A stretch of 64,000 nt of DNA from NCBI RefSeq assembly GCF_003018115.1, contig NZ_CP027457.1; one strand, 5' to 3'. The position numbers are program-made. Below, piece after piece: positions 12,601-15,600 of this stretch (positions are counted from its first letter, which is position 1; each line of letters starts with the position of its first letter). The DNA comes from Escherichia coli. GTDB lineage: Bacteria; Pseudomonadota; Gammaproteobacteria; Enterobacterales; Enterobacteriaceae.

Positions 12601-15600
12601 TCATGGCACGTAATTTTTTCAGATGAGCTTCTTGTTCTGTTTCTGCCAGAATTTGTCGGTATTCCTGGTGATCGATTCGTTCAAACAGTTCATTAAAATC
12701 GTTTATTTTTACCGACTGTGTTCGTCCATCCATTCTTCTGTACAACACGATGTTATTTATGCAGTGAATAATTTTGACCGGGTAACCGGCACTGTCGGTA
12801 TACAGTTGTCCTTGATTAATCAAATCGAACATTTTTTCTCCTGTTCTCTGAATAGCGAGAACTTCAGAGCCGTATATTTGTAGCGGGTTCAATACTGATA
12901 ATTTCTGCAGCTACAAGCATTCCAGCAAGCCAGCTCTCTCCGGACAGGTCTTCATCCTGACATATCAGTTCGCCAATATTAATGGTGGCCATGATATCTG
13001 TTCCCCCTGTGCGCTCATCCTCGACTTCTTCATAAGGCAGTGTTGCGTACAGGCTTTCAATAGCGCAACTGATAACATCCAGTCCGGTCAGATTGCCGCC
13101 GACAGTAACTTCGAATGTTTCGCGGTATTCCCATAACCCGAAAGTTAATCGAACGGTTTGTTTTGCCATGCGTCCGCATGACGTCAGATTCGGGTCATAG
13201 TTCATTATTTGCGGTTGGGCATTATGGGTGTTCATCTGCTTTTCCCTTAGCCCGGCGGCCTGCCGGGCATATAAGTTATTTAACCTGGATAAATGGTGTA
13301 TTGGCACCGCTGGTCATGTATTGCGGCAGTGTGCCGTTCCATTTATTGATGGCTTCCAGCTCCATAACACCGGGGTTCTGGCGCAGAGCTTCACCGCGTA
13401 AACGAATAGCATCGGCTTCGGCCTGGGCTTTTGTGCGAATGGCGTCAGCCTGTCCGGCTGCTTCCGCGCGCAACATGTTGGCTTCCGCTTCGCGCTGTTT
13501 TACTTCCTGTTCGCGTTGCAGGGTTTTCTGGTTCGCTGTGACTTTGGCATTAATGCTGTCGATCACGGTTGGCGGGTATTCCGGTTTACCGACATAAGAG
13601 AGGCTCATTACCTGAATGCCGATGGGGGTCATTTCTGCCTGAATATCTTTAAGTGCTGAATCCAGCAGTTCAGACTTGCCACCGTCGATAAATTTATCGG
13701 TGGTCATTTTGCTGGCCAGTCGGTTGAGTGCGTCGGCTATCTTCTGGCGCAGGTCAGTGTCGGTAATGTCATCCACGCCTTTGCGGTAGGTTTGAAACAC
13801 TGTAGTAACTTTGGATGGATCAACCTTGTAGGCCACACCGATGTGATAGCCGATGGTTGTGCCGTCACTCATCTGAAAGCTGAACGGTTCATCGTAGGTC
13901 TTCATTTGCTTGAAGGTGGGGAAGATGTAAACTTCAGTATTCCAGCCAGTCCAGTAGCGACCAACACCGACCACCTCACCGACGCCTTTATCGTCGCCCA
14001 GTTTATTTACTTTGATGCCAACATTACCGGGCTCAACGCGATCGCAACCGACAAGACCAATGGTCGGCAGAACAATGGCTAAAGCAAAAATAATTTTTTT
14101 CATTTTTTATCCTTAGTGAAAGAAAGACCCTTGTAAATGGCATAAATGCAGGGCGGGGTCAGAAACGCCAGTGCAAAGCCAGAAATAACTGCTCTCGTAT
14201 CCTTCATGGATATAAGGAACGGAACGAGTAATCCGTAAATGCATGCGATAATTGCCAGTAAAATTACTATTGTGAAATACAGTCTCATTGGTATGTGGTA
14301 TCCCGATATTTTTAACTGACAGACAGCGCAATAAAGAGAATAATGATTTCTGTTAGTGTCAGTACTGTGGCAAGGATTAAAAGCAGTTTTACTCTGCTTA
14401 ATTCACGGTCGCTTTTCATATAAACGGTTAGTAAAAAACGGAAGAGTTATATTCTTCTTAATATTTAATGTGTCACTGGCCTTCTGGCATACCATGAGTA
14501 TTCAGGTCGTTAATCATTTCATCCAGAAGGAGTTCAAGCCCTTCTCGACCTATATCTGAAAGAATGAAACCTTTATCAGGGGAAGTGGTGAGCATTTTCT
14601 GATAAAGAAACAGCGCTCTTCCCATTCCATCAGCTTCGCCATATGTTTGAATTAAATTCCATTCAATATACTGCTGTAAGGCAAACCGAATGGGACTAGG
14701 GTATATAGTCATAACTCCATGCTTCCCGTTATATATTACGGCGCGATCTGTTGTTCCGTGTTCATTCGGGACATCAATTGTGCCGTTCTTGTCTTCTTCT
14801 TCGTTGATGAATGTCGTCACATACAACCATCGCCACTGGGCAACCTTCATCTCAACCGGAAGTTTTCCCAGTAATCCTGCTTCGTCAGCTTGCGCGAGAC
14901 ACTGAAGGATACGTAAACCTCGCACATTAGGAGTATCGAATTCTCCAGCATCCAGAGGGCGTATGGCGTCGTGATAATCAATAGTCATACTGCCTGTTTG
15001 TATACCATTGGCTGTTGCTTCAGCCTGGAATTCAGCGTAGTGCATGAAATTTATTCCTCATCTTCATCTGCTGGTGCAATAACGTCATATCCTGCCTTTT
15101 CTGCAATAAACAGGAATGTTGAAAGATTTCCTACAAATTCATCGTCATGAACATGACGAATTAATATTACTTTCCCGTTTTTGATGGTCAGCAATACTCT
15201 GGTTTGTTCGTGTTCTGCTGTTTTCTGATGCATTATTATCTCCCGTATGCTTTACGCAGAAACAAGCAGGCAATATGCATGTGATTTTTCCCGTGTTGTG
15301 CAATAAGGCAGGCTGTTTTGTGTGATGCCTTATGTTTTATAAAAGTCATAATAAAACCTCCTGTGGATTAAGTGTGTGATAATCCCCGGCGATTAAGCCG
15401 TAATATAGTATCTGGAGATGACTTGTTCTATTTAACTGGATAGTTCTTTTTCAGCTGCTGCTTCAGCATAGCAACGTGCAAATTCAAGAACTTCATCACC
15501 TGTTCTTTTTATTGCGTCGTTGTCTGACATTTGTAATACGATAACTGCGCATAATAAATTATGGATATTGTTTGCAAAGGAATCCGGTGCCAGGCATAAG

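Follow-up and report, generated by a model that had tools for sequence, protein, structure and literature searches.

A mobile phage gene pair encodes an SPFH lipoprotein of predicted cage-type architecture and a small two-transmembrane partner

Two overlapping prophage genes in Escherichia coli, located on a 64,000-nucleotide stretch of contig NZ_CP027457.1 (assembly GCF_003018115.1; the whole stretch is hereafter called the window), encode an SPFH/band-7 lipoprotein of 275 amino acids (13276..14103, minus strand, plus stop codon) and a 62-amino-acid protein with two transmembrane (TM) segments (14100..14288, minus strand), which we call the partner. Both open reading frames (ORFs) lie exactly where the initial annotation of this DNA had placed them, and with their Pfam and PHROG matches neither is a chance reading frame. 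Comparison of loci shows, at the level of sequence, a cassette that is transferred whole among unrelated phages, temperate as well as virulent, and structure prediction shows the large protein as a cage-type SPFH architecture that follows a lipoprotein signal peptide. Its probable role is to remodel the inner membrane in lytic growth, and not to steer lysogeny. We propose a mechanism in which cage and partner act together at the inner membrane in lytic development; leaving the identity of any client aside, we consider the case for it evenly balanced.

Each of the 21 phage lineages inspected has the partner gene next to the SPFH gene, on its upstream side and on the same strand; these lineages are the window, P88, a P1 variant, Fraca, CMS-2020a, N4, Ro1, phiE125, phiCbK, OLIVR5, Pokken, PaP4, Pacha, Lak-B6, MD18, Panisse, crAss cr126_1 and four metagenomic phage contigs, the divergent lineages being sampled from tblastn matches and representative clusters. 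In the window the two genes overlap by ATGA (14100-14103), where the TGA stop of the partner shares bases with the ATG of the SPFH gene. An AAGGA Shine-Dalgarno sequence, read directly within the 3' end of the partner gene (14110..14114, minus strand), stands 7 nt from this start, while the ribosome-binding site of the partner itself is weaker. Close SPFH copies in four other backbones, P88 (P2-like), the P1 variant (MH422554), Fraca (HK97-like) and CMS-2020a (a 107-kb element), are each preceded by a two-TM ORF of 64-78 amino acids which overlaps the SPFH start or lies a few bases away, and the motif Y-G-L-L-V-P-x-L-I-S is common to all four; the small ORF of the P1 variant is unannotated.

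A hidden Markov model (HMM) of the partner, made from 7 free partners and 18 fusion N-termini (see below), was scanned over the six-frame ORFs of every fetched locus. It recovers the 62-amino-acid ORF of the window (E=1.7e-23), and in the lineages outside the seed its top match is always the same-strand ORF upstream of the SPFH gene: Agrobacterium phage OLIVR5 (1.5e-13), Stenotrophomonas phage Pokken (1.2e-9), Pseudomonas phage PaP4 (3e-8), Pacha (9.5e-8), Prevotella megaphage Lak-B6 (4.5e-7) and Phaeobacter phage MD18 (7e-6), with weaker values for Erwinia phage Panisse (4e-3), crAss-like cr126_1 (0.015) and gp44 of phiE125 (0.26). In each of four further distant representatives, all from metagenomic contigs, a two-TM gene of 68-73 amino acids overlaps the SPFH start. 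Several of the ORFs that match the HMM are intact yet unannotated, as in Pokken (locus L094, 1260-1487, plus strand), the P1 variant (locus L004, 3275-3511, minus strand) and phiP27 (3307-3492 of the record, minus strand).

Moreover, the two proteins also occur as a single polypeptide. Among the best 150 representatives at 50% identity, 26 are 320-390 amino acids long, and 18 of these 26 carry the partner fused in frame at the N-terminus, which gives at least 18 sequence clusters with partner and SPFH protein in one chain. In the fused chains the two-TM sequence comes first and a basic linker second; next is a third hydrophobic segment, which contains the lipobox Cys, and the SPFH domain is last. 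A check at the DNA level found two of the fusions (loci L007 and L008) to be uninterrupted ORFs in code 11. When the partner and SPFH protein of the window were modelled with AlphaFold2 (AF2) as one chain, using a paired alignment, the TM hairpin, a third helix and the SPFH domain of this fusion mimic were all predicted with confidence (predicted local distance difference test, pLDDT, 89.9; predicted template-modelling score, pTM, 0.70; partner helices at pLDDT 88-93). Full-length structural matches to the combination of three TM segments and SPFH domain are present in the AlphaFold database for members of the Candidate Phyla Radiation (A0A0G0Z720 and A0A0G0P3N1; for instance Candidatus Yanofskybacteria), and hence the fused form seems to reach well beyond Proteobacteria and Bacteroidota. 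Because the genes are adjacent in all 21 lineages and have been fused repeatedly, the two proteins most likely work together, and we take these observations as strong evidence, from sequence, that they are functionally coupled. The initial annotation had noted such coupling to a small two-TM protein but understated it.

The partner itself belongs to PHROG_1130, 'membrane protein' (E=1.2e-22, residues 1-61). Hydropathy places its hydrophobic segments at about residues 3-27 and 33-52, in agreement with AF2 helices at 2-26 and 31-55. Between the helices runs the conserved turn motif YGLLVP-FLIS-MKDT with its polar turn S-M-K-D-T-R, and the protein ends in a 10-residue tail with the basic sequence KDKK. 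It carries the label 'hypothetical protein' in every source, matches nothing in Pfam even at E<=10, and matches no family of NCBIfam. Identification as NfeD was rejected, given the missing Pfam NfeD match and a length of 62 amino acids that is too short for an OB-fold domain, and the lack of any Pfam or NCBIfam match likewise led us to reject a named holin or immunity family.

The large protein begins with MKKIIFALAIVLPTIGLVGC followed by DRVEPG. Its signal peptide (residues 1-20; 14044..14103, minus strand) has the form MKK-IIFALAIVLPTIG-LVGC, that is, an n-region, a hydrophobic h-region and a lipobox L17-V18-G19-C20 which agrees with the pattern [LVI][ASTVI][GAS]C within the first ~25 residues; Asp21-Arg22 come after Cys20, itself a conserved column. 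Pfam Band_7 (PF01145) covers residues 22-208 (13480..14040, minus strand; E=7.6e-31; model positions 2-176 of 176) and places the protein in the SPFH superfamily, so that its reading as a phage-borne SPFH/band-7 lipoprotein was correct. The match to PHROG_200, 'lipoprotein', is stronger still (E=5.4e-114, residues 1-274); the profile has 379 positions and the window protein begins at position 81, an offset that is consistent with fused members within that family. Scores against the HflC (TIGR01932) and HflK (TIGR01933) equivalogs of NCBIfam, 24.9 bits (cutoff 134.4) and 22.7 bits (cutoff 159.4), are far under the cutoffs, and the closest PDB match by sequence is HflK (E=7e-4). Other names attached to relatives we reject as annotation carry-over: 'putative serine protease' for L05 of phiP27 (also labelled 'lipoprotein') and for Stx2 phage records, and 'transposase' or 'transposase fusion protein' in PaP4, MD18 and Burkholderia. 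Pfam, PHROG and NCBIfam recognised neither a protease nor a transposase domain.

The AF2 model of this protein, built with 106 diverse homologs, has a mean pLDDT of 92.4 and consists of a signal helix, an alpha/beta SPFH domain (strands and helices over residues 20-175), an unbroken Ala/Glu-rich helix of 65 residues (178-242; 13378..13572, minus strand), a short helix and a low-confidence C-tail. Foldseek against PDB ranks HflC (2e-14) and HflK (5e-14) on top with the whole chain aligned, followed by prohibitin 1/2, erlin 1/2, stomatin, flotillin, major vault protein (MVP) and QmcA (4.6e-8), and every one of the 64 PDB chains at E<=1e-3 is an SPFH cage subunit or MVP. The predicted order of an SPFH alpha/beta domain and then a long coiled-coil helix is that of the cage-forming members, and in the model helix 178-242 is the putative wall-forming coiled-coil element of such cages. 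Structure prediction, which the initial annotation had recommended as a check, has therefore returned the SPFH fold. Towards the C-terminus, two family alignments share the motif K-W-N-G-x-L-P (residues 254-260; 13324..13344, minus strand), in which W255 is invariant and G257 and P260 are at least 90% conserved, and the hydrophobic tail PFIQV comes next. The last 20 residues have low pLDDT in the monomer, and this C-terminal segment may fold only in an oligomer.

Several features point to the side and the membrane on which the pair is placed. Ratios of K/R to D/E, counted over partners and fusion N-termini, are 35:5 for the N-tail, 10:24 for the loop and 87:30 for the C-tail, and under the positive-inside rule the partner is therefore predicted to be N-in/C-in with a periplasmic turn of 4-8 residues. 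With this orientation the fusion order is topologically coherent, since TM1 would run from inside to outside, TM2 back and TM3 out again, leaving the SPFH domain outside. Of 104 close Enterobacterales homologs that have a lipobox, 97 read C-D-R, and Asp at position +2 is the classical inner-membrane retention signal of E. coli lipoproteins. Across the family alignment the lipobox Cys column is kept in 95 of 106 members, while 10 of the 106 have no Cys and instead an uncleaved hydrophobic helix that is joined directly to V-x-P-G-x-V-G, the conserved sequence with which the SPFH domain begins; an alpha-helical anchor is possible only in the inner membrane. From Asp+2, the TM-anchored relatives and the fusion to a polytopic inner-membrane protein, we infer that the SPFH domain lies at the periplasmic face of the inner membrane. 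To our knowledge, HflK/C are the only bacterial SPFH proteins with this topology.

The family is widely distributed. By tblastn the SPFH protein occurs in 414 phage records, the representative clusters (50% identity) number 3003 at E<=1e-3 and 227 at E<=1e-30, and 569 of 5426 complete E. coli genomes have the gene, with 435 chromosomal and 226 plasmid copies. Lambdoid, P2-like, P1-like, HK97-like, N4, rV5-like, crAss-like and Lak backbones all carry the pair. Virulent carriers include N4 and the N4-like phages of Erwinia, Klebsiella, Stenotrophomonas and Pseudomonas, rV5-like Vequintavirinae, FelixO1-like Ounavirinae, Bruynoghevirus, phiCbK-like, jumbo and crAss-like phages, and Lak megaphages. 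In N4, gp20 is 62% identical to the SPFH protein of the window, gp19 has the partner motif and overlaps the gp20 start, and both genes are situated just after the RNAPII genes with a canonical terminator at the end. Metagenomic members have phage-like neighbourhoods (RtcB, HNH, ERF, a 5'-3' exonuclease and a protein of >2900 amino acids, the last presumably typical of an N4-like virion RNA polymerase). Beside the N4 cassette stands gp18 (locus L009, 2407-2721), annotated as 'similar to P22 gp17', and a fused homolog is located two genes downstream of an Acb2/Tad1-hairpin gene (locus L008, 218-520). Acb2/Tad1 is an anti-CBASS/anti-Thoeris sponge fold, and these two neighbours look like conflict genes.

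Mosaic boundaries were compared in 80 close IMG/VR loci (L013-L092) from a search that returned only loci of at least 91% identity, and two classes can be distinguished. In the first, the only segment in common with the window begins about 9 nt within the partner gene and ends 13 nt beyond the SPFH stop (window 13263-14279; reference 822-1838, where 1838 corresponds to window ~13263) and contains the partner, the SPFH gene and a GC-rich hairpin. In the second, only the mature SPFH core is common (85-95% DNA identity), and three parts change in concert, namely partner, signal peptide and the ~11 residues at the C-terminal end. Two types of C-tail were observed, TSNTAVPFVPVK in P88 and P1 and TSGANTPFIQVK in the window and Fraca. 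Both ends may co-vary for functional reasons, or only because the core is the recombination substrate.

The hairpin of the window, GCCCGGC-AGGCC-GCCGGGC (13250..13268, minus strand), starts 7 nt past the SPFH stop, has no U-tract and appears to close the mosaic cassette at its 3' end. In almost every context the SPFH stop precedes either a GC-rich hairpin or an intrinsic terminator: Fraca, P88, Ro1 and OLIVR5 have hairpins like that of the window, whereas the intrinsic terminators of N4, CMS-2020a and Pokken are canonical. At the other end, the partner gene of P88 and Fraca overlaps or abuts the preceding early gene. A scan for sigma-70 promoters gave 9 sites against 10.6 expected in shuffled sequence, and no convincing sigma-70-like site was found upstream of the partner in the window, although a consensus scan of this kind cannot exclude a promoter. 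The cassette is co-oriented with the early genes. It thus seems to be mobile and to be read within early lytic transcription, rather than being a classical moron with its own promoter.

When compared with known systems, the phage protein shares with HflK/HflC (PDB 7VHP, 7VHQ and 7WI3) the SPFH domain, the long wall helix and the C-terminal segment, and it is predicted to resemble them further in being anchored to the membrane by its N-terminus, with most of the chain outside the cytoplasm. It differs in being phage-borne, in its dedicated two-TM partner, in an identity of ~17%, in a lipid anchor (90% of the phage family) where HflK/HflC have a TM helix, and in having a single SPFH gene, in the window and every locus inspected, where HflK/HflC are a paralogous pair. 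The initial annotation had likened the genes to cellular operons of SPFH plus small partner, such as QmcA-YbbJ of E. coli (PDB 8Z5G), YqiJ-YqiK, PH1510-PH1511 of Pyrococcus, and FloA/FloT with NfeD in Bacillus. The analogy holds for gene arrangement, as these too have a translationally coupled gene for a small membrane protein, and by analogy the phage partner may likewise be enclosed by the cage or nucleate it. The analogy does not extend to the partner, which has no NfeD/OB-fold domain and no Pfam family, or to orientation, since the cellular pairs face the cytoplasm whereas the phage pair is predicted to face the periplasm. The N4 pair gp19-gp20, within PHROG_200/PHROG_1130, is by contrast truly homologous and differs from that of the window only in phage backbone and +2 residue (C-Y-D in N4).

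The SPFH annotation as such is already public, in RefSeq and PHROG_200. For the members of PHROG_200/PHROG_1130 the literature searched yielded annotations and speculation but no functional study, and a review of jumbo-phage conflict systems makes no mention of SPFH. That the family occurs in phages at all has been called unexplained (PMC13239085, June 2026). The only prophage SPFH protein with experimental data in the literature searched is PM0222 of Pasteurella multocida, an 'HflK/C-like' protein of 25-35 kDa that is found in outer-membrane vesicles (OMVs), acts as a TLR1/2 agonist and is a virulence factor (PMC9872710). Like the window protein it is a prophage SPFH protein, and it is a candidate member of the same family; its OMV/TLR2 role concerns the animal host and leaves carriage by virulent phages unexplained. 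The universal two-TM partner, the recurrent SPFH fusion and the placement at the periplasmic face of the inner membrane appear to be undescribed in the literature searched, and together they define a phage-specific variant of the SPFH-plus-partner theme.

In the mechanism that we propose, the SPFH protein would be exported, lipidated as predicted and kept on the periplasmic face of the inner membrane, where it would oligomerise into a closed, HflK/C-like dome over a membrane patch. The partner would supply the TM element that is missing from the lipid-anchored SPFH protein, a 'split HflK' suggested by the fused and TM-anchored variants, and it may either nucleate the cage or sit inside it with its basic tail exposed to the cytoplasm. 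Where the two are fused, signal peptidase II may set free the polytopic N-terminus, which would make it an unusual 'three-TM signal peptide'. The module would be produced at an early stage of lytic development, or once a prophage has been induced, and would alter events in the enclosed patch. In its widest form the proposal is that phages of many lineages, both virulent and temperate, with hosts from Proteobacteria to Bacteroidota, build a periplasmic HflK/C-like cage with a detachable two-TM segment and capture a conserved host inner-membrane machine (FtsH, a DNA-entry component or a defence component) for takeover or exclusion; this we offer as a possibility on the doubtful side.

As to the client, HflK/C, prohibitin and erlin are exoplasmic-face cages, two of these three regulate FtsH-family proteases, and FtsH is universal in bacteria, which fits the breadth of the phage family. 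Because these are the nearest classes and FtsH is universal, we rank host FtsH first, before a block of entry or superinfection and then membrane protection, and suggest it tentatively as the most likely client by analogy with the HflK/C-FtsH and prohibitin-m-AAA pairs. If FtsH is the client, the benefit would be to lytic growth, for example through protection of phage membrane proteins or altered turnover of sigma32 or LpxC, and not to the choice between lysis and lysogeny.

A number of points weigh against the cage-plus-partner mechanism. The models are of monomers or a single chain only, and cage, localisation and interaction are predictions; no result ties the SPFH protein to FtsH specifically. 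HflK/C is a hetero-oligomer of two paralogs while the phage has one SPFH gene, and Foldseek barely separates HflK/C, prohibitin and erlin (E-values from 2e-14 to 1e-13), which leaves 'HflK/C-like' weakly discriminated. Outside Enterobacterales sorting is uncertain, as many relatives have S, T or G at position +2, Ro1 has E and N4 has Y. One or two extra small genes lie between partner and SPFH gene in Ro1, PaP4 and Panisse, and the upstream multi-TM protein of phiCbK is not recognisably homologous to the partner. Finally, all 18 fusions keep the lipobox Cys, but since 90% of unfused members keep it too (p about 0.15) we have down-weighted this retention as proof of cleavage.

The pair might instead, made early in infection, alter the inner membrane on its periplasmic side and thereby stop the DNA of secondary phages from crossing; such exclusion we judge to be unlikely. 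It would suit genes of an early operon whose products are placed in the envelope and which form a mobile accessory cassette with sharply defined mosaic ends, and it would also suit the presence of the SPFH cassette on prophages in about 10% of E. coli genomes and the conflict-type neighbours (N4 gp18 and, by the fused homolog, the Acb2/Tad1-hairpin gene). T4 Imm/Sp, P22 SieA and HK97 gp15 are the systems for comparison and have no homology to the pair. Known exclusion proteins are narrow and fast-evolving, unlike the phage SPFH family, which keeps 35-45% identity across phages of very different hosts, Proteobacteria included, and has detectable members in Bacteroidota phages. No model of PADLOC-DB v2.0.0 matched either protein or two neighbouring genes at E<=0.01, nor was a promoter of its own found that would secure expression of the cassette in a lysogen.

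Generic protection of the membrane is another, and in our view unlikely, explanation, in which the cage would stabilise or repair the inner membrane in long lytic cycles or against membrane-targeting abortive-infection effectors, with flotillin and PspA-linked SPFH functions as analogues. A generic physical target would agree with so wide a range of hosts, the cassette is enriched among virulent phages that are large or have long cycles (N4-like, rV5-like, jumbo, phiCbK and Lak), and bacterial SPFH proteins have been linked to membrane stress (PMC8581546, PMC10434171). There is, however, no precedent for a periplasmic SPFH protein that acts without a client protease, and computationally such protection is hard to tell from the sequestration of a client.

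The initial annotation had favoured modulation of lysogeny through FtsH and CII/CIII, an idea that is not original to it, having been raised for phage SPFH proteins before (PMC8540360, PMC10269572). On this account an HflK/C mimic would tune FtsH so that CII/CIII-like regulators become more stable and the Stx prophage is biased in its choice between lysis and lysogeny. The closest relatives are indeed HflK/HflC with the same inferred topology, and the cassette is placed in the leftward early region of a temperate phage. Yet direct support was not found, the scores remain far under the HflK/HflC cutoffs, no CII/CIII homolog was identified beside the cassette, and the same cassette abounds in virulent phages, which have no lysogeny decision to make and which are the majority of carriers (N4, Vequintavirinae, Ounavirinae, Schitoviridae, phiCbK, Crassvirales and Lak); because of the latter, a role specific to lysogeny cannot be the general function, and we consider this account very unlikely. 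A surface or OMV lipoprotein of lysogenic conversion that acts on the animal host, as PM0222 affects virulence from OMVs (PMC9872710), would suit the Stx1a phage of a human isolate, and might apply to particular prophages, but is the most improbable of all, given that Asp+2, the TM-anchored relatives and the fusions to inner-membrane proteins all indicate the inner membrane, that virulent environmental carriers are not explained by animal-host virulence, and that PM0222 is only a candidate homolog of the phage family.

The carrier of the cassette is an Stx1a-converting, phiP27-like prophage at yecE in a human isolate of Shiga toxin-producing E. coli. The DNA here is 100% identical to a prophage region of the chromosome of E. 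coli O178:H19 2012C-4431, where RefSeq labels the products 'SPFH domain-containing protein' (WP_000720013.1) and 'hypothetical protein' (WP_001242072.1), and it is 95% identical to phiP27, in which L05 corresponds to the large gene and the small gene is unannotated. In line with the early-left placement already proposed, the pair is found in the leftward early region with the S24 repressor on one side and xis/int on the other. The prophage is integrated beside a truncated yecE/DUF72 gene, its integrase is at 10859-12145 (minus strand), and the stx1a A-subunit ORF (26157-27113, plus strand) scores 728.9 bits against the NCBIfam Stx1a cutoff of 718.

Further features surround the pair. Downstream of the cassette, a DUF4222 gene (12590-12892, minus strand) is a frameshifted pseudogene according to RefSeq in the identical E. 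coli record, and the DUF5406 gene (12864-13235, minus strand) starts at the ATG at 13235, preceded by the ribosome-binding site AAGGGA, and not at the GTG at 13307 given in a mechanical ORF listing. An unannotated single-TM ORF of 35 amino acids, MKSDRELSRVKLLLILATVLTLTEIIILFIALSVS, occupies 14312-14419 (minus strand) in the 185-nt gap upstream of the partner gene; it was rejected as a third component of the cassette, as related loci have other DNA in its place and yet retain the cassette. Gathering-level Rfam matches inside the prophage, close to Rha and BRO-N genes, are isrK (19678-19754, plus strand) and C4 antisense RNA (19779-19866, plus strand), the latter being the P1/P7-type immunity RNA; the two matches suggest a putative ant-type secondary immunity region in this phiP27-like Stx phage. 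Rfam also matches STnc100 just downstream of stx1 (27471-27684, plus strand), as well as MicL (3543-3850, plus strand) and ES036 (7786-7828, minus strand) in the flanking host chromosome. No tRNA genes were found in the whole window.

SPFH cages such as HflK/C, prohibitin, stomatin, flotillin and erlin are structurally understood as domes that compartmentalise membranes, and we know of no viral member that has been studied. Judging by its low family number, PHROG_200 appears to be among the larger phage protein families, and it is present in Stx-converting prophages and P1-like phage-plasmids as well. The constant two-TM partner, together with the gp19-gp20 pair of N4, provides an experimentally tractable system in which to ask what a virus gains from caging the inner membrane of its host on the periplasmic side. 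If the client is FtsH, the connection between lambda and Hfl would be extended from a host factor to a phage-encoded device for lytic growth; if entry is blocked, the cassette would represent an unusually conserved mechanism of exclusion.

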